From the IMG/VR virus record IMGVR_UViG_2541047798_000010: DNA of 43,320 bases; one strand, given 5' to 3'. The DNA comes from a virus (taxonomy: Duplodnaviria; Heunggongvirae; Uroviricota; Caudoviricetes). The position numbers were made by a program, and so were the translations under genes. This document shows positions 3,361 to 27,615 of the stretch, one piece after another. Under the pieces are notes generated by a model. The model made no database searches. It was not told where the DNA came from and worked only from the letters and a program-made list of their open reading frames with translations. The first letter of the stretch is position 1, and each line of letters opens with the position of its first letter.

Positions 3361-3386
3361 CCCGCAAAATATTGCGGGCTTTTTTT
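3361..3386. terminator. Hairpin overlapping the tailspike stop codon; U-tract is on the plus strand, orientation and function ambiguous
   Basis: Stem CCCGCAAAATATTGCGGG followed by CTTTTTTT on the plus strand. Confidence 0.35.
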
Positions 3387-6300
3387 AACGTTCTTCCAGA
3401 GACTGAATCCGCTCTTTTATCTTATCCATTTCTCTGCGCTGCCATGCTGCCTCGATATAGAATAAGAGATCAGGCCTGACCCCCCATCTAGATCCTGCTG
3501 GCGTTATTTCAACGCGCTCAATGATGTCTTCCATTACCATCACTGGATTATCATCCTCATCAACAATGATGCTCCCGTCATTATCAGTCAGCGGCATTTC
3601 CCTTTGGCCAGTAATGACGTCATCATATACTGCGGGATAATCGTCATAGCAAAGAAAGGCATAGCGGCATGTTGTGCTTTCTTCTTCCATGAGTCCGTGA
3701 GAAATAAGAACATCACGAAGTTGCTGCGCGATTACACCATGATGTATCCTCGCCCCTTCTTCCCCCTTTATAGCGACAGCGTTCAGCCATTTATAAGCGA
3801 TATACCTGACGTCACCCCAGGCATCCAGCAATGCTTCGTCAGGAGAGACCGGCTCTGTCTTTAATGTTCCGTCACTGGTAACCACAGGATTGGAGCCAAG
3901 ATAAACTGTCGAGAACCTGTTTCCCGGACCACCAAGAGCATTTACATTATCAAGATAAGGTTTAACATCTCCGTTCTCAAAAAGATGTTCGAGTGCGTTA
4001 TATACCGCGCGACGTGGAGTACTGCTTCCGGAACCATGCAACGTTATCATTGCACCATCTGCTGAAGACGTTGTTTCACCGCCGCTAACGATTAATCTCT
4101 GAGCGGTAACATCATCAGACGGTACTTTCTTCGCAATAATGGCGTAATTACCCTCAAGTTTGACTTCCGCGCGAACTTGTCCTGATGTACCTGCATGGAC
4201 AGTCAGTGACTGGACGGCAACATCATCTGTGAAATCAACGGGTACAGGAACCGTCCTCACGCCTGACGTCGACATAAAAGTAGGAAGCGTTCTGTTAGGA
4301 GTGGCTCCGTAGACAAAATCCCTTGAAACAAATTCTTCCTGTTTGATTTTCACCCTGAAACAATATAAATCAGCCGGGTGACCATCGTGAACATAAGGAT
4401 ATTTTCTGTTGTTATCCCCTATGCTCCATGGGTTTAGAAAGTCTTCCCCACCGAAAATGTAGTACAGCCAGTTGTCTTTGATACAAACTGAACCAACACC
4501 AACCGCAGAGTTAACTATTCCGCCCTGATAAATCTGATCAGTAACATTAACCCACTCTACATTATCCAGACTCCACTCATTGACGTTAACTCTGGTCATA
4601 AATGTTCTTGGATAATTTCCTGCATAACGGTTATCAGGTTCTCCTCCTTCCCACTCACCAAATGCGCGCTCACTGCCAAAAATAATCAGCTCATCGCCAA
4701 CTTTGGCAAAAGGAAGGTTTGAGTGATGAACATTATTTGGGAAGCGAAGAGAATTCCATGATGTACCTAAATCAGAGCTTCTGTGCAATGAACTACCGGG
4801 TTGAGTACTTAATGTCCCCCTGGTCGTCAGATACAGAATGCCATCATAATATTTTACACATGGCTCAGATGCATTCGCCTCATATTCTGCAGGTATGCGT
4901 CTGCGAACAAAGCTACCAGGAGAACCGAAAGCATCAGAGAAATAGAGTATCCCAAGCTCGCGTGGACCAATATCACCATTATGGTAGCCAACAGCAAAAC
5001 TGTTATCGCTAATCGTCGCAAAACTGTGAATCTCAGTAACAGGAGTGCTTCCGTCAACAAAAGAAGGAATAGTTCCAAGACTGGTTTTTCTCCATGGTGA
5101 CGAGTGAAATGATGTGCCAAAACTCCAGTATCTACCCTCGTTATTCTGATCCACATCCTGAGTATTTTGCGTCGTAACTGTAAAAGTATTTTTATCAATA
5201 ACAGTAGTCACCGTCATATTCCCGGTAACACCTGTAACACCAGAGTTTGAGAAGTTGACAAAATCACCAGCAAATAATCCGTGATCAGTAATGCGAATAT
5301 AAGCGACTTGCTGATTTGCTGCTTTCGTTATACCACCATAAACGCGAAGGCTGCGACTCATTGGGCGATCCCACAACTCTGCAACCTGCAGTTTATTTCC
5401 TCTCACGGTCCGCGTCTCAATTACAGCAAAAAGGCGATTTCTGACAACCCCCATACTCATGCAGTGATAGTTAACTGTGGGATAGTTTTCATGTAAATCT
5501 GTAAGCCATTCCGGCGTTGTCCAGGTCTTCCCGTCATCTCCTGAGCGAACCCATGCAACATGGAGGTTATTTACACCATGGCGGTCTCCAGCCATAAAAG
5601 GCGCATAGATGACATTGTCATATACAAACGTTTTATCCTGCGTCCAGGCGTTGTACCACGGTGTATCTGTAATTTTAAATAACTCTCCCTGGATAAAATC
5701 TTCAGAAGCATAAAAAAGAGGCTGGCCCGGTATTCTCTCAAATAAAAAACGAGCATTTTTAAATCGACTGACATCCGGAAGAGTTGATACTTTAAAAGTA
5801 AGCCCTAATCCGTCAATTTTATAACCTGGAGATGAGGCTTCAAGGCACGCGCTTATTGCAGTGGAGTCGTCATTTATACCATCACCAACAGCTCCAAAAT
5901 CTTTGGGGCTAATAGCATCACGCATTTTATCCTGGAACGTTCGGTACACAGCCCCAGAACCATACTGAATAAACCAACCAAAACCACCAACAACCCCGGC
6001 GATTGCAGCATCAACATAATTACGCATTGAGCGATTATTTACAGCGTCCTGCTCAAATGATGGATCTGCAAGGTTAGAAATTTTGTTTTGCTTTGCATCG
6101 TAATATTTTGCAAGCAGAGAGGGCTTCATCAATGCACGTCTGAACCACCCAAAACATTGCTGGATCAGCATCGTCAGGTAGTCAAAGGCATCTTCATGCA
6201 CTTCGGGGAAAAATTTTCCCTGATTGCGAAGGTCTGTCTCCTGCACTACATCAAGCACACGATCTATCGTAATTCGCCATCCAGTAGCAAGCGGAGACGG

Positions 6301-6504
6301 AAGAACCACAGAACCGCCACTATAAGTGCCCGCCCCAGTTACCGTATAACCGGTATCCAGGACCAATTCTGTTACGTTCCCGTTCAGGTCAGACACCTGA
6401 ACAACCAGGTCTGATTTTCTGAAAATTCGAAAAGTATACGGAAACGATGTCGTAACGCCGTTACCGGTGTATTCGTTGTGGTCAACTTCGGTTGAGACCG
6501 TCAT
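3385..6504 (-). CDS. Tailspike/depolymerase: T7 gp17-like N-terminal adaptor, central domain with pectate-lyase-like motif plus sialidase-type RIP and two Asp-box motifs, C-terminal intramolecular-chaperone (peptidase S74-like) domain
   Basis: 1039 aa; RBS GGAG upstream of ATG 6504; motifs DFGAVGDGINDD (aa 202-213), ERIP (aa 255-258), SGDDGKTW (aa 321-328), SSDLGTSW (aa 576-583); C-terminal about 160 aa from TSDGTLKTEP resembles auto-cleaving chaperone domains. Confidence 0.9.
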   Translation of the reverse strand: MTVSTEVDHNEYTGNGVTTSFPYTFRIFRKSDLVVQVSDLNGNVTELVLDTGYTVTGAGTYSGGSVVLPSPLATGWRITIDRVLDVVQETDLRNQGKFFPEVHEDAFDYLTMLIQQCFGWFRRALMKPSLLAKYYDAKQNKISNLADPSFEQDAVNNRSMRNYVDAAIAGVVGGFGWFIQYGSGAVYRTFQDKMRDAISPKDFGAVGDGINDDSTAISACLEASSPGYKIDGLGLTFKVSTLPDVSRFKNARFLFERIPGQPLFYASEDFIQGELFKITDTPWYNAWTQDKTFVYDNVIYAPFMAGDRHGVNNLHVAWVRSGDDGKTWTTPEWLTDLHENYPTVNYHCMSMGVVRNRLFAVIETRTVRGNKLQVAELWDRPMSRSLRVYGGITKAANQQVAYIRITDHGLFAGDFVNFSNSGVTGVTGNMTVTTVIDKNTFTVTTQNTQDVDQNNEGRYWSFGTSFHSSPWRKTSLGTIPSFVDGSTPVTEIHSFATISDNSFAVGYHNGDIGPRELGILYFSDAFGSPGSFVRRRIPAEYEANASEPCVKYYDGILYLTTRGTLSTQPGSSLHRSSDLGTSWNSLRFPNNVHHSNLPFAKVGDELIIFGSERAFGEWEGGEPDNRYAGNYPRTFMTRVNVNEWSLDNVEWVNVTDQIYQGGIVNSAVGVGSVCIKDNWLYYIFGGEDFLNPWSIGDNNRKYPYVHDGHPADLYCFRVKIKQEEFVSRDFVYGATPNRTLPTFMSTSGVRTVPVPVDFTDDVAVQSLTVHAGTSGQVRAEVKLEGNYAIIAKKVPSDDVTAQRLIVSGGETTSSADGAMITLHGSGSSTPRRAVYNALEHLFENGDVKPYLDNVNALGGPGNRFSTVYLGSNPVVTSDGTLKTEPVSPDEALLDAWGDVRYIAYKWLNAVAIKGEEGARIHHGVIAQQLRDVLISHGLMEEESTTCRYAFLCYDDYPAVYDDVITGQREMPLTDNDGSIIVDEDDNPVMVMEDIIERVEITPAGSRWGVRPDLLFYIEAAWQRREMDKIKERIQSLEER

Positions 6505-7003: not shown

Positions 7004-7094
7004 ATTTACATCGCACTCCTCTTGTGCCATAGTAATCGGGCACTGGCAAAATCCAGTGCCGGGATTGGCGTCCCGGGTTACTAAGTGGCGCATA

Positions 7095-7117
7095 CCACGC
7101 CAGACGTGGTTTTTTTA
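7095..7117 (+). terminator. Rho-independent terminator inside the ant1 leader
   Basis: Stem CCACG/CGTGG followed by TTTTTTTAT; preceded by two further stem-loops (GGCACTGG/CCAGTGCC and CCGGGA/TCCCGG). Confidence 0.55.
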
Positions 7118-7272
7118 TGCGTTAAGCACAGCTATATCCGAATTATGGTGGGCTGGGCAGGGGTCCGAAAGGACGCCGGTACCACTTAGGCCGGTACGCC
7201 AACCTTGTCCAGTTCACCACCAGTAATTGGCGTTGCGGTGGTGATTAAAATCACTAAGTGGAGATAACCACC

Positions 7273-7983
7273 ATGGCTAATGCTCAAACTGCCATCTTCA
7301 AATTTGAATCTGTTAACCCTATCCGTTCCATCATTATCGATGGCCAACCATGGTTTGTAGCCCAAGACGTTTGTAGTGCGCTGCGTATCCAAAACGTCAC
7401 CCAAGCACTTGAAAAACTGGATGATGATGAAAGGTCTATGTTCAACATAGGGCATGAACATCGTGCAATTTTTGACAGCCGAGTAAAAGAGATCAACATT
7501 ATCTCCGAGTCAGGCCTCTACACACTGATCCTCCGCTGCCGCGACGCAGTGACACCAGGCACTATCCCCTACCGCTTTCGTAAATGGGTTACAGGTGAGG
7601 TTCTTCCTCAGATCCGCCGCACCGGAAGTTACATTAAAAACTCGCTCCCGCAGGAAGAACGCATAAAGATGGTTGCCGACCAGGTAGCCAACGCCACAGC
7701 ATCAGCAGTGATGCAGGCAATGAAGATAGAGAACAAAACCTACAGCGCCCCGCTGAAGCCCGGCTACCGCAGCCTGATTCATTCGCCGTCTGGTGTTCTC
7801 GGCCTGACGGAGAACTCACTGCTGATGAATCTGCTGAACCAGTTACAGGAAGACGGGCACGATGTATCGGGCGCGGCGGCGGAGCTGACCACCATGTTTT
7901 GCTACATCGTTGGTGTGAGCAAATGCCTGCGTGATATCCAGACGCACGCGGAGTACATCAACGACAAGGCTGGGTTCTTCTGA
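7273..7983 (+). CDS. Antirepressor paralog 1 (Bro-N-like N-terminal domain plus shared C-terminal effector domain)
   Basis: 236 aa from ATG 7273 (RBS GGAG); N-terminal IFKFESVNPIRSIIIDGQPWFVAQDVCSAL is Bro-N/KilA-N-like; C-terminal half nearly identical to paralog 2. Confidence 0.8.
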   Translation: MANAQTAIFKFESVNPIRSIIIDGQPWFVAQDVCSALRIQNVTQALEKLDDDERSMFNIGHEHRAIFDSRVKEINIISESGLYTLILRCRDAVTPGTIPYRFRKWVTGEVLPQIRRTGSYIKNSLPQEERIKMVADQVANATASAVMQAMKIENKTYSAPLKPGYRSLIHSPSGVLGLTENSLLMNLLNQLQEDGHDVSGAAAELTTMFCYIVGVSKCLRDIQTHAEYINDKAGFF

Positions 7984-8199: not shown

Positions 8200-8739
8200 G
8201 TGTTAAGTGAAGAAATGCAATTTGCCATGGCTGTGGCTCAAATCGTAAGTGCAGTCGCGGTTTCGCTTGGCTTGTTCATAGCTATCGCTACTATTATTTA
8301 TAATGTAAATACAGCGAGAAAAGTACACACTTCAGTATTCCTTGGTGAAAGCAGGTTTGATGTAGATTATAAGAAAGGCCTATCTACTATGCGCCGCATT
8401 CACGAGTCGAACAAATCATTCCGCTCTTATATGTATCCAAGCAATGGGCAGGCTGATCTTACGGATGAAGAAAAGATAGAGAAGAGAGAAATAATTTACT
8501 GTCTAGGTTTCTACGAACGCATGGCTGTGAGCGTGAAGCGGAAAACTTATGATGAGACCATGATTAAGGAAGTATTTTACAGCTCCGTTGTAAATAACTA
8601 TCAGATTGCGCTACCTCTTATACAAGCTATTAGAGAAAAAGAAAACATAAACACATATTTTAAAGAATATGAATGGTTAGCCACACGATGGAAGGATTGT
8701 CCATTGAAGGACAAATCCCCGTGGTACAAGTTTTGGTAA
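8200..8739 (+). CDS. Membrane-anchored protein of unknown function; AT-rich cargo between the inverted ant genes (candidate superinfection-exclusion or abortive-infection protein)
   Basis: 179-aa ORF with GTG start at 8200 (GGAG 7 nt upstream) or ATG 8215; single N-terminal TM helix; markedly AT-rich; 3 of the first 8 Arg codons are AGA/AGG; followed by a strong terminator. Confidence 0.6.
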   Translation: MLSEEMQFAMAVAQIVSAVAVSLGLFIAIATIIYNVNTARKVHTSVFLGESRFDVDYKKGLSTMRRIHESNKSFRSYMYPSNGQADLTDEEKIEKREIIYCLGFYERMAVSVKRKTYDETMIKEVFYSSVVNNYQIALPLIQAIREKENINTYFKEYEWLATRWKDCPLKDKSPWYKFW

Positions 8740-8832: not shown

Positions 8833-8994
8833 ATGAAAAAAGCATTTGCTGCACTGTTCGTTTTGTTGTCTCTGGTAGCTTCAACTCAGGCCTTTGCCGG
8901 TCGTTGTCAGCACGACAGCGACACTGCTGCTGACGGCTCCCGCTGCGGTGGGCGTTCTGCGGATTCCCGCCCTGGCGGCGGTGGCATTCGTTAA
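8833..8994 (+). CDS. Possible small secreted Gly-rich peptide (53 aa); weak call
   Basis: Internal ATG of track ORF 8761-8994; predicted signal peptide MKKAFAALFVLLSLVASTQAFA; no convincing RBS. Confidence 0.3.
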   Translation: MKKAFAALFVLLSLVASTQAFAGRCQHDSDTAADGSRCGGRSADSRPGGGGIR

Positions 8995-9044: not shown

Positions 9045-9470
9045 CACATCCCTGTGCCGCCGTTCTGTCAGAAGAACCCTGCTTTGTCGTTGATATACTC
9101 CGCGTGGGTCTGGATATCACGCAGGCATTTGCTCACACCGACGATGTAGCAGAACATGGTGGTCAGCTCCGCCGCCGCGCCCGATACGTCGTGCCCGTCG
9201 TCCTGTAACTGGTTCAGCAGATTCATCAGCAGTGAGTTCTCCGTCAGGCCGAGAACACCAGACGGAGAATGAATCAGGCTGCGGTAGCCGGGCTTCAGCG
9301 GGGCACTGTAGATTTTGTTCTCTATCTTCATCGCCTGCATTACTGCTGACGCCGTGGCGTTGGCTACCTGGTCGGCAACCATCTTTATGCGTTCTTCCTG
9401 CGGGAGCGAGTTTTTAATGTAACTTCCGGTGCGGCGGATCTGAGGAAGTACTTCGCCTGTAACCCATTCA
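9045..9470. repeat. Right arm of the near-identical inverted repeat (3-prime half of ant2)
   Basis: Reverse complement matches 7585-8010. Confidence 0.8.
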
Positions 9471-9760
9471 AGAAATCTGAATGCTCTCGTTCCCTCAGTC
9501 ATTGCCTCTTTGCAACGCAGAATAAGGATGTAGAGACCTGATTCTGAAACGATGGATAGTTCTTGTATTCCACCAGGGGTCTGTATTGAATACAGCCCCT
9601 TTTTGTTCCAGCCTTTTTTATCAAGTTTTCTCGCTTGTGTAACATCAATATTCAAAGCATTGCACACATCTTTGGTGACAAACCAAGGTTCTCCGTCAAT
9701 CATGAACATACGGATCTGGCAGGATGACTCAAAGGAAAAGATGGAAGGTTTGGTATTCAT
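9068..9760 (-). CDS. Antirepressor paralog 2 (Bro-N-like N-terminal domain plus shared C-terminal effector domain), inverted relative to paralog 1
   Basis: 230 aa from ATG 9760 (RBS AGGTGA); N-terminal domain diverged from paralog 1, C-terminal about 130 aa near-identical. Confidence 0.8.
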   Translation of the reverse strand: MNTKPSIFSFESSCQIRMFMIDGEPWFVTKDVCNALNIDVTQARKLDKKGWNKKGLYSIQTPGGIQELSIVSESGLYILILRCKEAMTEGTRAFRFLEWVTGEVLPQIRRTGSYIKNSLPQEERIKMVADQVANATASAVMQAMKIENKIYSAPLKPGYRSLIHSPSGVLGLTENSLLMNLLNQLQDDGHDVSGAAAELTTMFCYIVGVSKCLRDIQTHAEYINDKAGFF

Positions 9761-10027
9761 GGCGATCACCTTTGTAGTTAGGTTAATCACCACCGCTGAG
9801 ACCAATCAGATGGTGGTGAACTGTGCAGAGTTGGTCTTACCGGCTACAAAGGAACCCGGCGCACCTTTCGGTGCCCCCACACAGCCCACCATAGAATAGG
9901 TGCGCTTTACACATAAAAAAACCGCTTATGCGGCATATGTGCCTCTGTAGTAATCCGGGAGACCAATCCCGGCACTGGATTTTGCCAGTGCCTGATTACT
10001 ATGGCACAAGAGGAGTGCGATGTAAAT

Positions 10028-10189: not shown

Positions 10190-10543
10190 GTGCCATTCCA
10201 CGGCGCAGAGCTTTATGTTGTCAATCATAACGGCGAACCATACACCCCAATGAAACCTATCGTTGAAGGCATGGGTATGGATTGGGCTTCACAGTTTACG
10301 AAAATGAAGCAGCGGTTTAAAACCTGCATTGTGAAAATCACAATGCAGCTTCCTGGGGATGAACAGCGCCGTGAGATTATTTGTTTGGCACTTCGCAAAC
10401 TTGCTGGCTGGTTGCAAACCATCAGCCCTAACAAAGTCCGCCCTGAAATCCGCGAAAGTATTGAAACATCAACCGTATCGATATCGACACGGTTGATTAT
10501 GACGGTAACTTATTTCCGTGTGTCCTATTTCTCCCGCCACTAA
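10190..10543 (+). pseudogene. Possible gene remnant; ORF with GTG start and no RBS
   Basis: 117-aa track ORF; normal GC content, no ribosome-binding site, ends directly against the minus-strand AT-rich gene. Confidence 0.25.
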
Positions 10544-10840
10544 CTAATTATATTTGTCTTTAAAAATTTCATGGAATGATTGAGAGTAAGACTTGCCATA
10601 CTTCAAATAACATTCTTCATCCAACTTTCTTAATGAACTTCGAACCTGTTCGTGGCATACAGCAAAAAAAACAAGTCCGCCGCCTATTAATACCCCTATT
10701 GATATTGGGTTCGCAACATCCCATAAAAAATCGGCTAACAGAGCAAATACCCCACCGCCGCCAATAAATGCCCCTATAGCTCGGTTCGTTTTAGCTTGCT
10801 CATAGCGTCTCTCTAACTCACTAAACTCTTTAATATCCAT
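10544..10840 (-). CDS. Small two-TM membrane protein, AT-rich moron
   Basis: 98 aa from ATG 10840; two Gly-rich hydrophobic helices (GAFIGGGGVFALLADFLW and ISIGVLIGGGLVFFAV) with charged termini; low GC. Confidence 0.55.
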   Translation of the reverse strand: MDIKEFSELERRYEQAKTNRAIGAFIGGGGVFALLADFLWDVANPISIGVLIGGGLVFFAVCHEQVRSSLRKLDEECYLKYGKSYSQSFHEIFKDKYN

Positions 10841-10917
10841 ATAAGCACCTCTATAAAATTACTTCATCACCGGATCCACCTGGTTTATTAGTGGCGCAAT
10901 CCAGAACAGATGTTTTA

Positions 10918-11766
10918 TTATTGTGAAGTTTTCATTGCACGATTTTCAGCTCTGAATTCAAGAACCGTTTCAATATTTCTTTCCTTCAGCATATCCATAA
11001 CATTTTTATTCATTTGACTATCACTGGTTAATAACTGATAAACGTTTCTTTTCTCTTTATCAGAATTTTCTTTAACAGCTGATTTGCATGACAAATGCTT
11101 ATTGAAATTTTCTACATCGCTAGTACATGAATTTACGGCTGCGGATGAAATATCAGACGCTGAAGAAACACCGTCATCTAAACGTTTTATAGCATTTTCT
11201 ATACATGAGTTAAGGGAATAAACGACAACTGAGCGATACCCTTCAGACGCACACCATTCTAAATTTCTTGAAGGATCGAGTGGTTTTACTTCGCTGGATT
11301 GAATTAACTTGTCAAACACTGACTTATATTCAATCTGTTTTTTATCTATAGCCCATACCTCAGTAGCTGATTTATAATGCCCAGTATGCTTATTAACATC
11401 AAACCCATGTTTTATAAGCAAATCTGCCCATGAAAGATTTATTGATTCATTGTTATGAGGCCATTTCCCTGTCAGAACCGCCCCCATAGACCCCATATAT
11501 CCGCCATATGATGGTATAGCACCATGGCTCAATAACTTCTCAGCAACCACAGGGCAATTAATTACATAGGAGGCGTAAAGCCCATTCCATAAAGCCCCTC
11601 TATAGTAATCGCCGCGATTAGGTTCTTTTAAGTCGATAGCCTTTGATAATTGTTCACACGTTTTGCATGCATCAAAGTTATCCTTATTGCATTGCAATGA
11701 ACTGGCGGCTGTAGGATTTACAGCGACTATTGAAAGCACAATGCCAAACAAATTTATTTTTTTCAT
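10918..11766 (-). CDS. Secreted Cys-rich protein of unknown function, AT-rich moron (possible degenerate ankyrin-like repeats)
   Basis: 282 aa from ATG 11766; N-terminal signal peptide MKKINLFGIVLSIVAVNPTAASS; many Cys; segments such as ADLLIKHGFDVNKH resemble ankyrin repeat ends; low GC. Confidence 0.6.
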   Translation of the reverse strand: MKKINLFGIVLSIVAVNPTAASSLQCNKDNFDACKTCEQLSKAIDLKEPNRGDYYRGALWNGLYASYVINCPVVAEKLLSHGAIPSYGGYMGSMGAVLTGKWPHNNESINLSWADLLIKHGFDVNKHTGHYKSATEVWAIDKKQIEYKSVFDKLIQSSEVKPLDPSRNLEWCASEGYRSVVVYSLNSCIENAIKRLDDGVSSASDISSAAVNSCTSDVENFNKHLSCKSAVKENSDKEKRNVYQLLTSDSQMNKNVMDMLKERNIETVLEFRAENRAMKTSQ

Positions 11767-11767
11767 C

Positions 11768-14700
11768 CTATTTCATCTGCTCTTCAACTTTATTCAGTAA
11801 TGGTGATATCGCCCACAGGTTCTGAAAAGGTAGCATTTTACGGACCGCGTGGGTTTGCTGGCTGTCAAATTCTCCGTTAAGTACACCATTCGCAACCGTC
11901 GCGGCATCACCGCCAAGATCAAAGGTAGGACCAAGTAAAGCACCAATAGCATTACGACTCTGAAACCTTGATACCGGAGGCGCACCAAACATCGCGCCAA
12001 GACCAAACCTACCGCCGCTTATGTTCTCAACGGTATTCAGCGGCTCAGAGAGCCAGCCAAGCATTCCACCCCGGTCGATCCCCTCTTTCACAAGGTTATT
12101 CCAGCTGTAGTCGATATCGCGACCGCTTAACTTCTGTTTCATCATATAGACCATTGAGCCAAGCGCAATCGTGCCAAGCGCACCAAGATAGAATGCAGCA
12201 TCGCCCTGCTGGATACCAGATACCAGCACCCTGTTATGCTGTGCGAAGATAAACGTTTTGAACTGCGTGATCATCTTCCAGCCTTCTTTACTAAAAAACA
12301 GCGGTGTATCACCTACGCCAGGCGTTACAATCACTGAGTCTACATCTTTCAGCACTGCAGACTGGAAAATCTCTCTAGCGAAACGGTCATCCCACAGATG
12401 ACTATGCCCGGTTAACAGCCCGTCCATATCCTCTCCGTGCTTCCCGAATTGCTCCCCGATTCGGCGCAGAACATCTTCATTGATGCCGACCTGTGCCATC
12501 TTCCGCATTTCACTTTTGGAGAGCGTGCCACCAGCAGAAACTTGGCGAGCCGCGTCAAGTATCCTCGACTGCACTATCATCCCAGACCATGATTTAAGTG
12601 CGCTGTTCCACTGATTCATCAGCGTCCAGTTACCGAATTTCTGCGTCATCCAGTTCAGACCTCGCTCAGCGGCGCTTCTCCGGCTATAGGGGTCAGTAAG
12701 ATCCGCTATAGCCTTTGTACGCGTAGACAGGACATAATCAAGCCCAACTGCCATTTCTCGCAAATCCCTGGTTGCAATTTTCACTGAGTCCATATTTTTA
12801 AGCATGCTTACCATTGGTCCGAGAGATTTTCTCAGGCCATGCTGCATCATCGGTCGCATCAGATCAGTTGCAGCGGAGACGGTCATTCCACCAAGCAAAC
12901 GGAGGAAGTTAATATTCCTAGCAACTCGCCCGGCACGAACAAAGAAACTGCGTGGATCTTGAGGTGCACCGTAAGTACCAAGCAGTCGATCACGCATAGC
13001 CGTAATATCCCTAATATCAGCCTCCCGTTGCTTCTCAAGAACTGCACGTCGTTTAGGTGTTTTAGCCTCTTTTATTAGCCTGGTATATTCCTCACTAACC
13101 TGACGGATTTGCTCCCCCATATCTTTACGGCCAAACTGCGCAGTCAGCTCAATTTCTGGTGCCACCTGCCGGAGATAACTTTCCATGATGTAGTTAACAT
13201 CTGATTCAAGAAAATCTTCTATACGCTCATCAGGAATAAGCAGCGTTCGGCTTTTAGTGAAACCAGCCCGACCAACGAGTCTCTCTGGGATAATATCGGC
13301 TGGTACAAGCCCGGAAGGTGCGCCTATTATTTTATTCACGATCTCGTCAGCAGCGTCCTCTGCTTCCTCTCGGGATAGAGGCTCCATCTGCTTCAGTGCT
13401 CGCTCGCGGCTTGCATTCAGCCTTGTGGTTGAATTTGCCCGTTTTTGCAGTCGGCGAAGCTCAGAACGATATTTCCGTGGATTATCCAGCAACTCCATAT
13501 GGCGCTGATAGACAGGAAGCTCACTCTTTGCCTGCGCTATATCATCAAGGCGTGTTTTAAGGTCAGAGCTTTCTTTCATCATTCTTGCCTGAAGTTTTTC
13601 TGATGAAGTCTCGGCCAACTCTTTTTCTATTCTTGTAAGACGCGCCTGTGTGTCAGTCTCCTGAGATATAAGCTTATTTCGTTTATCCAGTTCTTCCATG
13701 AGTAGAATTTTTTTACCAGACCATTTCTCCGCTTCAGCGATTTCACTAGCGAGAGCATCAGCGCGCGGTGCTGATTCCTCTGCAGTTTTTAGCAATGAAT
13801 TTATCTTTTCAATTCGCTGACCTGCTTTGTCAGCACCTTTGGCACTAATCCCTTGTATCCAGTTGGCAATTCGCCCTCTGAATTCAGTGCGGTCGGAAAG
13901 TATCTTATCGAACTTATAAATGCGGGGAAGATAACTCTTCGCCGTCACGACATCGATATCCTCAGGAAGGATCCCCAATTCCTGCATACGGGCTTTTGTG
14001 GTCTCAAAAATGGGGCGGATTCTGGCGGCTGCTTGTGAAACCTCAGGAATATCACTCTGATCACCACGGCGCATAGCCATGCCAACAGCTTCATTGAAAT
14101 CAATAAAGTTCATCCTCTTCACGCCGCGGGCGCTGACAGATTTGCTGTACTGCTGGTAAGCATCACGAGTAGCTTCCATCTGCTTATAAAGCATGGCGTC
14201 GTATTGCTTAATCTTAGTCTCGACTGCCGTAAACGTAGCCAACCCCTCATCATTTTTGGCGAAGAAATAGTTATTTTCGGCAAGCTGCTGGTTAATCTGA
14301 CGGGAAACAAGAGATGGTGATTGCGCCAAGCGGCCAGCAGGAGTGACACTCAACGTTTTGTTAGCAAGTCCAAGTCCAGCAAGCTGTTCCTGATCGAGTG
14401 TGGTATTGAAAACCTGAGCTGCACCAATGCTTTGAGGAGAATCCATACCTCGCAAATGATTACCTACTGAGTTAACCACTGCCTCGCGCGCGCTAGGTCC
14501 AGCAAGTAGCTGTGCACCAGCACCAAGGATCCCACCAACGAGAGCATCAACAACAACGTTCGATACGCTCTCCATCGGTGAGCGAGCTTCCTGAGTGGCC
14601 TGCAATGCGGCCTCTGAAGCAACACTGCCAGCAGCATTGGCTAAAGCAAAACGTCCGGCTGTTTCTGCAATACGACCGCCACGAACGACAGCGCCGAACG

Positions 14701-15157
14701 GAATAAACATAGAAATCGCATTGAATGGATCTGCTAATCTCATTGCTACAGAAGAGACTGTACCAGCAAATCCCAAGCCTGAATTGTATTCCATGTCAGC
14801 TCTCTGCTGATCGATTCGATGTTTAATTGCCATTGTTTCTTCATGCGAACCGGAGTTGATAAACGAATCTGCAAAATCTTCATAGCCTTTAATATCTGCT
14901 GCATCGTTATCAAATGGGTTATATCCTTCAACCCTGTCAAACTGACTGAAAGGAGCACTGGCAATAAAGCTACCCAGCGTGTTATCTATACGAAATGCTG
15001 CTTGTCTAGACCTTTGAACGCGTTGATCACTGGTAAATGGGTTCACAGCAGAAAGCAAAGAAGGTGTTTCCATATAGAAATTACTGTCATCAGGTGCTGC
15101 TATTTGCTGAATACCCTCGCCAAGCAACTCTTTAGGATCCTGTTCATATATCGGCAT
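11768..15157 (-). CDS. Large internal virion / DNA-ejection protein (T7 gp16-like position and size)
   Basis: 1129 aa; coiled-coil-rich; start ATG overlaps the upstream stop (TAATG); last gene of the tail/core module. Confidence 0.6.
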   Translation of the reverse strand: MPIYEQDPKELLGEGIQQIAAPDDSNFYMETPSLLSAVNPFTSDQRVQRSRQAAFRIDNTLGSFIASAPFSQFDRVEGYNPFDNDAADIKGYEDFADSFINSGSHEETMAIKHRIDQQRADMEYNSGLGFAGTVSSVAMRLADPFNAISMFIPFGAVVRGGRIAETAGRFALANAAGSVASEAALQATQEARSPMESVSNVVVDALVGGILGAGAQLLAGPSAREAVVNSVGNHLRGMDSPQSIGAAQVFNTTLDQEQLAGLGLANKTLSVTPAGRLAQSPSLVSRQINQQLAENNYFFAKNDEGLATFTAVETKIKQYDAMLYKQMEATRDAYQQYSKSVSARGVKRMNFIDFNEAVGMAMRRGDQSDIPEVSQAAARIRPIFETTKARMQELGILPEDIDVVTAKSYLPRIYKFDKILSDRTEFRGRIANWIQGISAKGADKAGQRIEKINSLLKTAEESAPRADALASEIAEAEKWSGKKILLMEELDKRNKLISQETDTQARLTRIEKELAETSSEKLQARMMKESSDLKTRLDDIAQAKSELPVYQRHMELLDNPRKYRSELRRLQKRANSTTRLNASRERALKQMEPLSREEAEDAADEIVNKIIGAPSGLVPADIIPERLVGRAGFTKSRTLLIPDERIEDFLESDVNYIMESYLRQVAPEIELTAQFGRKDMGEQIRQVSEEYTRLIKEAKTPKRRAVLEKQREADIRDITAMRDRLLGTYGAPQDPRSFFVRAGRVARNINFLRLLGGMTVSAATDLMRPMMQHGLRKSLGPMVSMLKNMDSVKIATRDLREMAVGLDYVLSTRTKAIADLTDPYSRRSAAERGLNWMTQKFGNWTLMNQWNSALKSWSGMIVQSRILDAARQVSAGGTLSKSEMRKMAQVGINEDVLRRIGEQFGKHGEDMDGLLTGHSHLWDDRFAREIFQSAVLKDVDSVIVTPGVGDTPLFFSKEGWKMITQFKTFIFAQHNRVLVSGIQQGDAAFYLGALGTIALGSMVYMMKQKLSGRDIDYSWNNLVKEGIDRGGMLGWLSEPLNTVENISGGRFGLGAMFGAPPVSRFQSRNAIGALLGPTFDLGGDAATVANGVLNGEFDSQQTHAVRKMLPFQNLWAISPLLNKVEEQMK

Positions 15158-17904
15158 TATTTGCCCCCTGCGTATATATTGCTCGGAAGGTAATTGGCTG
15201 AACCATAACCGAATGGTTTTGTCAGATCTGGAGGAGTATATCCATCTTTATTGCTGAACTGCGGCAGCGGATTGCCTTCTCTCCGCACTCTAGCCTCATC
15301 AACACGCTGTTGCTGGAACTGAATGGTTTGCCTGTACATTGGAGATGTCAGCTGATCCGGCTTGAAACGAACAGGGAGACCATTTTCTCCAATATAATTT
15401 CTCGGTTCTATCGCTCCGTTTGCGTCAGGCTGTAAAACCATAACAGCATAACTCCTATCCCTTGCCGTAAGGCCATCAGAAACAAGTATTAAGTCCGTAT
15501 CACTGCGAGGACCGCCAAAGGATTTTGATTTAAGCTCGCGTTTTTCCTGCTCCCACTGCCCCTGTATCCAGTTACCAGCACCATTATTTACTCCGTACAA
15601 TGCCTCAGGTGCATACTTCATAACCTCTGCTTTGCCATTAACTGTAGAAACTCCCCAGGTGGTTCTGATCATGGCATTGGTCATTTTCTCAGCCTGTTCT
15701 GCATCGCCACCTGTCTGTACAAAGTTAGCATCGTAAATTGTCTGGTAATCTCGCTGATAGGCCGCATTTGATTTTCCTGGATCGGTAATATCCGGAGACC
15801 ACGAACCAAAGGAAGTCAGACTGCTGGCGTTATTTTGTGCAGCAGTTGCCCTCGCCGCGACATATTTTTTGTCTCGCATGGCAGTGGAAAGCATCTGTTT
15901 CATTCGGTCATCCTGTTGGAACACCTGGCTGTAAGCCATATCAACAGCCTTATCCTCCGGCACGCCAGCGCGGGAATAATCGTAAACCTTGCCGTAAAAT
16001 GCCATCGTACTTTTATCAAGTGTTGCCGCTGCCGCCGGATTATTATCAAATAACTGACCGTAGAATTTTGCCATCGGGACAACCAGCGCAGGATCTCTTG
16101 ATGTTGCTCCACTGTTAAGCATTGTTTTAACCTGAGTTGGTATCATGCCGCTTTTAGTTGTGACGGTGACCAGTGTATTGATGCTCTGCGGATCAGATAT
16201 GGAAAACGAAGGCGCGATATCCTGCGCGAAATAACGGTCTACCGCTGCCTGATTGTTTTTGTCGTTCGGGTCCAGCGGGAAGTTATTTTGCATTGAAGAC
16301 ACGAACCTGTTTCTTCCCTGCTGAATCTCCCACTCCCTATCCATCTCTTTAAATTTGGCCTGCATTTTCTCCCAGCGTTGCTGGTTAGCTGCAAATCCAG
16401 GAGCGTTTGGATCCTGTGGACGTAAACGTTCAAGAATGTCTTGTCGTCCTTCTGGAGTGAGGTCTTTAGCGGCACCAATGACACCTCCATATTGTATCTG
16501 CGCCTGCATATCCTTCCACTTCATAGCGCCAATGCGCGGACCATTGGCCCGGATAAAATCGTCCTCAGAAGGTAACGTCTCAGGTTTCAATCCTTCATCA
16601 AGGGCTGAATATGCATCTTTAACTACGGTGCTAAGCTGGTCCGCATACTGCTGGCGGTACTGATTTCTCAGCTCATTAGCCTGCCTCAATGCCTGTATTT
16701 GCATTTGAGGGCTCATAGCGTCAAATGCCGCATTGCCCGTATAACGCTTAGGTGAATCAAGGTTAGTTAGACCAAGGGATGCCGAGATACCAGTTTCAAG
16801 CTGTTCGGTGCTATAAGGCATACTGCCATTTTCGTGTTTAATAATCCCAGCACATAAAGCAGCTAGTGTCTTTGGGTTAGAGATATCAAGCTGATCATTC
16901 TCCCCAACACCAAGCTCACTACACAATGCCCTAATATAAGCATCAGTATTATTACCATCACTAGCCGGAGCATAGCGATTAACAATCTCGCTAACGGTGT
17001 CATAGCCTTGACGCTGGTAAGACAACATATTTTTACCCAACGCGCGGATTCCATGCTCAGGGGTAGCAAACGTTGCAAAACGTCCATCGCTACCGATCTG
17101 ACCTTCCCACGGGTTAGATTTGCTCGCTTCAATATTACCAGGGTTATTATTACGTAAACCACGAGCATCCAATGAATTACCATGTGATATTGCACGACTC
17201 ACACCATCAAGATCCCCTGGCTCTCCATTAACCTGAAGAAACTCGTTGTATTTTTGAGCGATATTTCCTATCCATGCTTGCTGCCCCATTTGTTCCTTGA
17301 GCTGAGTTTTCTGCTGAACACGCCACCCATCAGGAAGCCCATGTGCATCAGCGTATTGATCAATAGATTCAAATCGCTGCTTGGCTAAATCGACAAATGC
17401 TTGGTTATCGCTATATAGCCCCGCAGACTGAGTGACAGCCAATGCATTTCCTGACAAATACGTTTGATCTTGGAATTGCTGAAACTGCCCAACTTCATAT
17501 CGACGTGCCTGATTGTAATAAGACTGCATAGACTGCTGGAGTTGAAAGGATAATTTATTCCTTTCCTCACTTTCAGGAATTGAGCCTAATAATGCCTGAG
17601 CCCTTTCCTGCATATTTTTCATAACAGCGTCACTCTGACCAAGAGCGTTTTTACCCTGTTTAGAAATCAGCCCATTTTCAGGGTTGTTAATCTGGTCATC
17701 TGCAAATTGGTTAAATTGCAGTAACGCCTCCTGGGCCATAGCAACATTCGCTTTCTGCCTGGCTTCACCATATGCCACCGCATACTGATCTGCGACATTC
17801 GCCAGCACCTGACCTGCTTGAGGAACATCGAAGGTCTGAAAACCACCGGTTTGCACACCACGACTTTGCACCTGGCGTCCGGATGTAGTAGGAACAACAG
17901 GCAT
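15157..17904 (-). CDS. Internal virion protein with peptidoglycan-hydrolase-like segment (T7 gp15-like position)
   Basis: 915 aa; segment LRNNNPGNIEASKSNPWEGQIGSDGRFATFATPEHGIRALGKNML typical of phage virion-associated cell-wall hydrolase domains; ATGA overlap with upstream gene. Confidence 0.55.
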   Translation of the reverse strand: MPVVPTTSGRQVQSRGVQTGGFQTFDVPQAGQVLANVADQYAVAYGEARQKANVAMAQEALLQFNQFADDQINNPENGLISKQGKNALGQSDAVMKNMQERAQALLGSIPESEERNKLSFQLQQSMQSYYNQARRYEVGQFQQFQDQTYLSGNALAVTQSAGLYSDNQAFVDLAKQRFESIDQYADAHGLPDGWRVQQKTQLKEQMGQQAWIGNIAQKYNEFLQVNGEPGDLDGVSRAISHGNSLDARGLRNNNPGNIEASKSNPWEGQIGSDGRFATFATPEHGIRALGKNMLSYQRQGYDTVSEIVNRYAPASDGNNTDAYIRALCSELGVGENDQLDISNPKTLAALCAGIIKHENGSMPYSTEQLETGISASLGLTNLDSPKRYTGNAAFDAMSPQMQIQALRQANELRNQYRQQYADQLSTVVKDAYSALDEGLKPETLPSEDDFIRANGPRIGAMKWKDMQAQIQYGGVIGAAKDLTPEGRQDILERLRPQDPNAPGFAANQQRWEKMQAKFKEMDREWEIQQGRNRFVSSMQNNFPLDPNDKNNQAAVDRYFAQDIAPSFSISDPQSINTLVTVTTKSGMIPTQVKTMLNSGATSRDPALVVPMAKFYGQLFDNNPAAAATLDKSTMAFYGKVYDYSRAGVPEDKAVDMAYSQVFQQDDRMKQMLSTAMRDKKYVAARATAAQNNASSLTSFGSWSPDITDPGKSNAAYQRDYQTIYDANFVQTGGDAEQAEKMTNAMIRTTWGVSTVNGKAEVMKYAPEALYGVNNGAGNWIQGQWEQEKRELKSKSFGGPRSDTDLILVSDGLTARDRSYAVMVLQPDANGAIEPRNYIGENGLPVRFKPDQLTSPMYRQTIQFQQQRVDEARVRREGNPLPQFSNKDGYTPPDLTKPFGYGSANYLPSNIYAGGK

Positions 17905-18470
17905 CAGTAACCTCCTATTTTGAATCGGGAGTCAGAATTCATAAAACCTGAGTTAGATAACATTGGCGTGTTTCCTTGCTTACTAATCGGATTGATACTT
18001 CCGCTACCCAACTTATATGCACCGTATGCTTTTAGTGGTGCCGTTAACAAAGTGCTGGTCATCGATGATTTAGCAGCCGACTGAGCAGCAGCCCCCTGTG
18101 CCTGAGCATTCATTCCCTGAACCTGATACCCATATGCCTCACGCTGAGCATTATTCACTGTCGTTAACGCATCAAGAGTGCCGAACTGAGCATTATCCGC
18201 AAAAACGTCAAGAGCTGTTCCGCTACTTAATTCCGCACCGGTAGCCCCCATAGTGGCCGCCGCAGTGCCTGAGCGTTGACGCATTTCACGACGACGCTGA
18301 TCCGCTTCAATATTCCCACGATTGATTGAATCCTGTGCCTGAGCTTCAGCAATTTCAGCATTCCGATCAGCTATGGCTGACTGGTATTTTGCCTGCTTGC
18401 TCTGGCTGTACATTGACGCGGCTGTGGATGCCACTGTGACGGCAACCAAAGCGATGGCTGGGTTACACAT
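17904..18470 (-). CDS. Internal virion protein (T7 gp14-like position), N-terminal membrane anchor
   Basis: 188 aa; hydrophobic N-terminus, Ala/Gln-rich body. Confidence 0.45.
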   Translation of the reverse strand: MCNPAIALVAVTVASTAASMYSQSKQAKYQSAIADRNAEIAEAQAQDSINRGNIEADQRRREMRQRSGTAAATMGATGAELSSGTALDVFADNAQFGTLDALTTVNNAQREAYGYQVQGMNAQAQGAAAQSAAKSSMTSTLLTAPLKAYGAYKLGSGSINPISKQGNTPMLSNSGFMNSDSRFKIGGY

Positions 18471-27538: not shown

Positions 27539-27615
27539 GTGGCATTAGCTCAGTTGGACAGAGCAACCGCCTTCTAAGCGGTTGGTCGCAGGTTCGAATC
27601 CTGCATGCCACGCCA
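27539..27615 (+). tRNA. tRNA-Arg (anticodon UCU, reads AGA), phage-encoded
   Basis: 77-nt cloverleaf: acceptor GTGGCAT/ATGCCAC, D-stem GCTC/GAGC, anticodon stem ACCGC/GCGGT with loop CTTCTAA, T-arm GCAGG-TTCGAAT-CCTGC, discriminator G and encoded CCA; differs from host argU. Confidence 0.9.

Follow-up and report, generated by a model that had tools for sequence, protein, structure and literature searches.

Two independent accessory genes for predicted envelope proteins behind the ejection-protein genes of an Escherichia coli prophage

Gene Content and Composition of the Low-GC Interval

We analyzed a 43,320-nucleotide (nt) stretch of an Escherichia coli prophage (IMG/VR record IMGVR_UViG_2541047798_000010), hereafter called the window, and within it a low-GC interval of 1223 base pairs (bp) at positions 10544-11766. 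Two open reading frames (ORFs) on the minus strand make up the interval, at the positions given in the initial annotation: one of 282 amino acids (aa) at 10918..11766, p282, and one of 98 aa at 10544..10840, p98. Both are full-length members of groups annotated as "unknown function" (PHROG 6118, E = 2.3e-195, for p282; PHROG 21905, E = 1e-67, for p98). On one side of the interval lies the gene of a gp16-like internal core (ejection) protein of 1129 aa (11768..15157, minus strand; PHROG 342, E = 1.2e-232), which is the last gene of the ejectosome set and is referred to below as the core gene. On the other side, the p98 module is abutted by a truncated antirepressor remnant (10190..10543, plus strand), which matches P22_AR_N over residues 2-92 only (Pfam E = 1e-31) and is labeled "incomplete" in RefSeq, with Bro-N antirepressor (Ant) genes beyond it. 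The two genes are thus placed between an ejection-protein gene and an antirepressor block, as had been described.

The GC content of the interval is 0.372 vs. 0.482 for the window (z = -3.7), and just 0.02% of all equal-length windows in the 43 kb are as low. The 1223-bp GC minimum across the 43 kb starts at position 10541 and is essentially the p282/p98 interval. For p282, GC content is 0.366 and GC content at third codon positions (GC3) is 0.297; the corresponding values for p98 are 0.384 and 0.333, and the gene means are 0.48 for both measures. GC content is therefore not uniform with the backbone. Comparison of E. coli alleles of p282 gave a non-synonymous divergence (dN) of 0.018 and a synonymous divergence (dS) of 0.115 (dN/dS ~0.16), and p98 differs from its copy in UTME-14 by seven synonymous and no non-synonymous substitutions. 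Both p282 and p98 are real genes under purifying selection, which is clear enough in each to rule out spurious ORFs.

A single nucleotide separates the TAG of the core gene from the ATG of p282, and 77 bp lie between p282 and p98 (10841..10917, minus strand). This intergenic spacer carries the GAGGTG ribosome-binding site of p98 and, at ~10910, the junction between the two modules. About 50 nt past the p98 stop codon, an inverted repeat (I1) with a stem of 13-15 bp (10468..10497, minus strand) marks the left edge of the p98 module, and the antirepressor homology ends directly against it, at ~10459-10466. This hairpin is a candidate terminator; the region has a z of -3.3, the consensus terminator scan made no call there, and a terminator role is uncertain because the U-tract is interrupted. 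A promoter scan upstream of p282 found no sigma-70-like promoter, with four promoter-like sites observed vs. 6.4 expected in shuffled sequence. Within 10544-11766, an Rfam scan found no RNA family, and a repeat scan of the cassette flanks found no meaningful repeats and no insertion-type direct repeats.

Predicted Architecture of the p282 Protein

The p282 protein begins with a predicted signal peptide (residues 1-22, MKKINLFGIVLSIVAVNPTAAS; 11701..11766, minus strand), which was called from sequence rules and not by SignalP. The sole hydrophobic segment of the protein, residues 4-20, lies within it and is followed by a small-residue cleavage site of the A-x-A type (between TAA and S or between AAS and S). 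An equivalent leader was found at the N-terminus of all p282 homologues despite sequence divergence. These are features of a cleavable Sec signal peptide, and export of p282 is strongly supported by computation. A lipoprotein was considered and rejected, with a lipobox present in no homologue. The protein contains eight cysteines (residues 26, 34, 37, 71, 172, 188, 214, and 227) that are invariant in 14 homologues of 39-96% identity, which suggests four disulfides. The signal peptide and the richness in cysteines that the initial annotation had ascribed to the 282-aa protein were both recovered in this analysis.

Computation also strongly supports a mature protein composed of an ankyrin-like protein-binding domain and a conserved helical domain. 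The N-domain (residues ~25-160; 11287..11694, minus strand) is a disulfide-containing ankyrin-like repeat domain. Comparison of its structural model placed it among stacked helix-turn-helix/beta-hairpin repeat folds of the ankyrin type. The Pfam Ank models did not match p282 at E <= 0.1, and a PDB-sequence profile search with p282 returned nothing significant (a DARPin at E = 1.2). One distant homologue had an Ank match at E = 0.013, which does not pass the cut-off. Because the Pfam Ank models do not match, we speak of an ankyrin-like fold and not of an ankyrin family member by sequence; the earlier suggestion of ankyrin-like repeats is borne out at the level of structure, not by these sequence models. 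The C-domain (residues ~165-282; 10921..11274, minus strand) is helical, carries the motif C..LDDGxSxASDI..C, and has a predicted local distance difference test score (pLDDT) of >90 in the full-length model.

An exhaustive profile search revealed p282 to be a fusion of two domains, each of which also occurs as a stand-alone small protein with an N-terminal leader. Stand-alone N-domain proteins are ~160 aa long (E down to 1e-41), and stand-alone C-domain proteins are secreted proteins of 110-160 aa with the motif C..LDDGxSPASDI..C. Pfam covers neither of the two domains. Close homologues of the whole protein are few and confined to the Enterobacterales (Escherichia, Klebsiella, Serratia, Morganella, and Providencia).

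The genomic contexts of the stand-alone N-domain genes are mixed, including mobile elements, a housekeeping block, and elements of Bdellovibrionota, and no toxin partner was found near these genes. In Microbulbifer (locus L026) and Marinobacter (locus L016), they are carried by small integrated elements whose replication gene is of the P2 GPA type; the neighbors are Abi_C and a reverse transcriptase in the former and a PIN_12 protein in the latter. The presence of N-domain genes beside Abi_C, reverse transcriptase, and PIN protein genes on GPA-replicon elements mildly favors a defense role. In metagenome-assembled genomes of Bdellovibrionota/Deltaproteobacteria (loci L012, L013, and L014), N-domain genes adjoin the gene of a conserved protein of 219 aa, in which a WRNQNPGN motif is combined with a DUF3892 at the C-terminus; the N-terminal part of this protein has a weak match (E = 0.009) to the beginning of "Gp29", a PDB chain of 1295 aa (9vvp_L). 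We counted the three loci as a single association, since they resemble copies of one and the same mobile element.

Predicted Architecture of the p98 Protein and Family Searches

The p98 protein has two hydrophobic, Gly-rich segments at residues ~21-40 and ~42-66 with a short acidic loop between them, in agreement with the two transmembrane (TM) helices attributed to it previously. A two-helix inner-membrane hairpin is strongly supported by computation. As the N- and C-termini are charged and conserved, an N-in/C-in orientation is predicted, in which both termini would probably face the cytoplasm. Homologues of p98 are extremely few and were found in E. coli and in one Citrobacter. The Citrobacter prophage encodes a homologue of 59% identity directly after the last core gene of another type and without p282; its GC content is 0.42 vs. 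0.56 for that core gene. The gene immediately before p98 in UTME-14 is gp16-like, with a product just 44% identical to that of the core gene in the window.

Neither protein matched any family in Pfam (E <= 0.1) or NCBIfam, PADLOC-DB v2 yielded zero families at E <= 1 for both, and the PHROGs hits were confined to groups of unknown function. Searches of Pfam and PHROGs gave no match of either protein to holin or spanin families. Homology to virion structural or ejection proteins was likewise looked for and none was found for p282 or p98, and both genes are absent from close relatives of the prophage; their reading as non-structural accessory genes is supported.

Distribution among Related Prophages

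In the set of complete E. coli genomes, the 3' end of this allele of the core gene was detected in 120, p282 in 106, and p98 in 38. Carriage of p282 thus amounts to 106 of 5426 complete genomes (~2%). The two genes are adjacent on the same strand in 34 genomes, and p282 occurs without p98 in ~72. In strain 2/0, the core gene is 99% identical to that of the window and p282 is absent, with the match ending exactly at the core-gene stop codon. Strain N1 and phage EC.W1-9 carry p282 without p98, and the matches of p282-only strains start at position 10911. The UTME strains show the reverse, p98 without p282, and the UTME-14 match ends at position 10909. Among 50,697 phage records, p282 was detected in one (EC.W1-9) and p98 in none.

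The two genes are therefore dispensable and mutually independent modules with a junction at ~10910. Since each occurs without the other among near-identical prophages, they do not form an obligate pair. The initial annotation had treated them as a pair, a description that does not survive the ~72 genomes with p282 only, the UTME strains with p98 only, and the solitary p98 homologue in Citrobacter. The block consisting of the antirepressor remnant and p98 also occurs in UTME-14, so these two travel together. The dS of p282 (0.115-0.122) is three to nine times that of the adjacent core gene (0.013-0.041), which points to local mosaicism, with p282 alleles shuffled by recombination.

The Slot behind the Last Core Gene

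E. coli, phage EC.W1-9, Klebsiella, Serratia, Morganella, Providencia, and a metagenomic contig all have p282 or a homologue as the first gene behind the last core gene. In Klebsiella, the gap between the core gene and the homologue is 1 nt, as in E. coli. The p282 homologues are 85% (Klebsiella), 57% (Serratia), and 41% (Morganella) identical to p282; the core proteins of the latter two are 79% (Serratia) and 55% (Morganella) identical, i.e., they follow the same rank order. The homologues have a lower GC content than the neighboring core genes throughout: 0.37 vs. 0.52 in Klebsiella, 0.40 vs. 0.54 in Serratia, 0.35 vs. 0.52 in Morganella, 0.36 vs. 0.395 in Providencia, and 0.375 vs. 0.55 on the metagenomic contig.

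By these comparisons, p282 is an old resident of the slot that has diverged together with the backbone in Serratia and Morganella. Because the homologues are AT-rich in every backbone and sit in the same slot, the low GC content is a maintained property and no evidence of recent acquisition. The composition had been taken to indicate horizontal acquisition; given AT-rich homologues that keep an identical slot across genera, and that diverge in step with the core in Serratia and Morganella, that conclusion is not supported as worded.

Other cargo was found in the same position. A Morganella prophage (locus L033, 6001-7182, plus strand) encodes a C-domain-only homologue with a signal peptide in the slot (P0080, 156 aa; hhalign probability of 94% and E = 1.5e-7). 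P0080 is followed there by a 227-aa protein with a signal-peptide/lipoprotein-like leader, a Bro-N gene, a YafO toxin gene, and the tailspike gene; the 227-aa protein was considered as an N-domain relative and rejected as unrelated. In Serratia (locus L006, 10850-11146) and Providencia (locus L024, 6838-7140), a multi-TM protein of ~100 aa is encoded after the p282 homologue on the same strand. These membrane proteins are unrelated to p98 and to each other, and the Serratia one (98 aa) was rejected as a p98 homologue. A periplasmic protein plus a small membrane protein is thus an arrangement that recurs, in Serratia and Providencia, from non-homologous parts. In strain 2/0, the slot (locus L008, 4560-5000, plus strand) holds a gene for a 146-aa signal-peptide protein with a GC content of 0.317, on the opposite strand and convergent with the core gene; a 149-aa gene adjoins it. 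In the sample examined, the cargo of the slot consists mostly of proteins predicted to be envelope-targeted (exported or membrane).

The genes share several traits with classical morons, such as bor and lom of lambda and those of HK97: they are AT-rich extras, patchy in close relatives, located between conserved genes, non-essential, and of a kind that often encodes envelope proteins. In contrast, textbook morons carry a promoter and a terminator and are expressed from the prophage, whereas a promoter was not found for these genes, and p282 directly adjoins the core gene. Moreover, p282 is an old slot resident co-diverging with its surroundings rather than a one-off insertion. The term moron, used in the initial annotation, is therefore apt as regards presence and absence with sharp edges and atypical composition. 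As regards transcription signals, a promoter of their own was not found, and the candidate terminator hairpin after p98 has a poor U-tract.

Proposed Function and Alternative Explanations

We are highly confident of the anatomy, localization, and accessory status of p282 and p98 as described above. The two are independent, dispensable cargo in a variable slot at the 3' end of a T7 gp14/15/16-like ejectosome operon, in a temperate podovirus prophage whose tailspike is an endosialidase (K1-type). Our preferred explanation of what they do, which we put forward tentatively, is that each gene singly confers superinfection exclusion, protecting the lysogen or the infected cell at the envelope. p282 might bind a periplasm-exposed protein of an incoming phage, either the ejectosome tube or a wall-degrading enzyme, in a way comparable to T4 Sp or as a soluble counterpart of P22 SieA. 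Independently, p98 might act like T4 Imm and P22 SieA and stop DNA entry at the inner membrane. As no homology gives the function, superinfection exclusion is argued here from anatomy and position.

The positional argument comes from P22, the map of which runs gene 16, sieA, immI, gene 9 (tailspike). The prophage has core genes, cargo, an immI-like antirepressor/antisense-RNA region, and a tailspike, an order that matches that of P22; like sieA, the cargo comes right after the last ejection gene and precedes both the immI/antirepressor region and the tailspike gene. SieA is a small accessory envelope protein whose types vary between related phages and which acts on the ejection-protein conduit (PMC10883804). 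Members of its family reside in the inner membrane with three to four TM segments and carry an FxRYPxEAxxFNK motif (PMC10883804). SieA is ~160 aa long and has its own promoter, PsieA. In contrast, p98 has two TM segments, lacks that motif, and has no detectable homology to SieA, and p282 is predicted to be soluble and periplasmic; a promoter has been found for SieA (PsieA) and none was found here.

T4 offers a precedent for two proteins acting separately. T4 Imm acts in the inner membrane; Sp, on the periplasmic side, inhibits the gp5 lysozyme of the incoming phage. According to Lu and Henning, the two are reportedly independent envelope exclusion proteins made during infection, not from a repressed prophage. 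The likeness lies in the two independent proteins at the envelope; it does not extend to sequence, Sp is a 97-aa membrane-anchored protein and not an ankyrin-like two-domain one, and T4 is a lytic myovirus.

Several observations weigh against superinfection exclusion. No homology of p282 or p98 to SieA, Imm, Sp, Cor, or Llp was detected in the Pfam, PHROGs, and PADLOC scans. No promoter was found and only 1 nt separates p282 from the core gene, so both proteins may be made only late in infection and not from a repressed prophage. The positional analogy to P22 is circumstantial. The stand-alone N-domain genes of Burkholderiaceae lie in a conserved neighborhood of a housekeeping type. Lastly, the protein in the slot of Klebsiella phage ST512-KPC3phi13.3 (204 aa) lacks a signal peptide, which makes the slot a cargo site of a general kind rather than one reserved for exclusion. 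The 204-aa protein was considered as a p282 relative and rejected as unrelated.

The binding target of p282 could also lie outside phage infection. Ankyrin folds serve in binding, and those known from the periplasm (Tli) inhibit enzymes. Tli of E. cloacae (PDB 7ubz) and Bd3460 of Bdellovibrio are, like p282, exported ankyrin-fold proteins, and they bind and neutralize a periplasmic enzyme. By analogy, p282 could be an immunity-type inhibitor of a periplasm-acting non-phage enzyme, such as a lipase or amidase effector of a type VI secretion system (T6SS) or another wall- or membrane-degrading toxin, which would make it a case of lysogenic conversion, shielding the host in conflicts between bacteria. 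We consider this unlikely, though conceivable. The N-domain of p282 differs from Tli and Bd3460 in being divergent, disulfide-locked, missed by the Pfam Ank models, and fused to an unrelated helical domain, and p282 is phage-borne with no toxin partner nearby. With respect to T6SS immunity of the Tli type, no cognate effector was found near p282, which is not specifically Tli-like. Somewhat less probable again is that the two proteins are late helpers of the prophage's own lytic cycle, with p98 acting as a holin/antiholin-like protein in lysis timing, or with a role in masking receptors or debris on which progeny would otherwise be lost. The genes are co-directional with the late operon, the 1-nt gap in E. 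coli and Klebsiella couples translation of p282 to that of the core gene, a separate promoter was not detected, and the topology of p98 resembles that of class II holins. However, both genes are dispensable among prophages with a ~99% identical adjacent core gene, the lysis cassette of the prophage already comprises two holins, a GH19 endolysin, and a DUF2514 protein, and no holin or spanin family was matched.

We give very little credence to an obligate two-component envelope defense system. The adjacency of the genes on one strand in 34 E. coli genomes and the small membrane-protein gene that also stands behind the p282 homologue in Serratia and Providencia would be consistent with such a system, but the genes are found apart in many genomes, separated at the ~10910 junction; the small membrane proteins of the other genera are not p98 homologues; and PADLOC gave no match. 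The least credible explanation, in our view, is that one or both ORFs encode components of the virion or ejectosome, or are spurious. Their position immediately behind the core genes and within the late transcription unit might suggest as much. Against a virion component, virions assemble in the cytoplasm, which is incompatible with a Sec leader and a disulfide-rich fold, and to this are added the absence of both genes from close relatives and the lack of homology to structural proteins; against spurious ORFs stands the purifying selection.

A more specific form of the exclusion proposal is speculative, and we regard it as rather improbable in its entirety. In this form, p282 would belong to an unrecognized class of phage periplasmic exclusion factors, in which a disulfide-locked ankyrin-like clamp and a helical domain with the LDDGxSPASDI motif bind the T7-type ejectosome that incoming podoviruses assemble across the periplasm. 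The slot, for its part, would serve as a dedicated "anti-ejectosome" locus with fast turnover, an analogue of sieA of P22 that differs in mechanism, and both domains would be new families of periplasmic inhibitors that are also used outside phages.

As uncharacterized prophage accessory envelope genes at a cargo hotspot, p282 and p98 represent a well-known kind of element. What is new beyond their PHROG annotation is the dissection of the p282 domains and the analysis of the slot. Whatever the function, two uncurated periplasmic domain families are defined. The p282 gene is also a clear case in which low GC content is a stable trait of an old accessory gene and not the mark of recent transfer, which calls for caution when GC content is interpreted. 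If superinfection exclusion is the correct explanation, temperate podoviruses of Enterobacterales with a T7-type core would resemble P22 and its sieA in keeping a swap-in locus for exclusion at the envelope right behind the ejectosome genes, and p282 would be a soluble periplasmic inhibitor, a poorly documented kind of exclusion factor. This would be relevant to phage therapy against K1 E. coli and Klebsiella; p282 is also present in an isolated phage, EC.W1-9.

Other Features of the Prophage

A copy of the prophage that is 99% identical adjoins yfgI in strain MLI109. The ejectosome set consists, in order, of a T7_gp14-family protein (17904-18470, identified by a family match), a 915-aa gp15-like protein, and the 1129-aa gp16-like protein. 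The alignment of the latter with PHROG 342 ("internal virion protein with endolysin domain") begins only at profile position 192, and the N-terminal lytic domain of this family is accordingly not evident. The RefSeq name of the protein, "DUF919 family protein", is based on a short Pfam hit to residues 530-575, barely over the cut-off (23.4 vs. 21 bits), and looks uninformative. A capsid cement protein of the Bbp16 type is also encoded. The virion is of the BPP-1/T7-core type, not of the P22-like CUS-3 type.

The tailspike gene (3385-6504, minus strand; 1039 aa) encodes a full endosialidase, matching End_beta_propel (E = 6.5e-233) as well as End_N_terminal, End_beta_barrel, End_tail_spike, and Peptidase_S74, and the phage for this reason probably recognizes the K1 capsule (polysialic acid) specifically. 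The tailspikes of related prophages are of other kinds.

Between the tailspike gene and the antirepressor remnant lie two modules of isrK and C4 antisense RNA, one at 7040-7224 on the plus strand and a second copy at 9809-9991 on the minus strand, which face outward (Rfam bit scores of 66-79 for both, above the gathering thresholds). A Bro-N antirepressor (Ant) gene is located downstream of each, at 7258-7983 (plus strand) for the first and at 9068-9805 (minus strand) for the second. Together, the two sets represent a duplicated immI control region of the P1/P7 type.

The other AT-rich cargo of this region is a DUF4760 gene (8200-8739, plus strand; Pfam E = 1.6e-30; PHROG 2284, unknown function) with a GC content of 0.39; its product has a hydrophobic segment at the N-terminus and no PADLOC match. 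It is accompanied by a gene for a 53-aa peptide, MKKAFAALFVLLSLVASTQAFAGRCQHDSDTAADGSRCGGRSADSRPGGGGIR (8833-8994, plus strand), with a signal sequence and a Gly/Arg/Asp-rich tail that contains two cysteines. The GC content of this gene is 0.57-0.58, unlike that of its neighbors. The peptide is identical in E. coli strains 2/0 and N1, and ST512-KPC3phi13.3 has a 52-aa gene in a similar place with the same label, "transmembrane anchored protein". Finally, the prophage contains a tRNA gene (27539-27612, plus strand), located between its portal and terminase regions, and a tRNA-Arg is annotated in the corresponding region of the MLI109 prophage.

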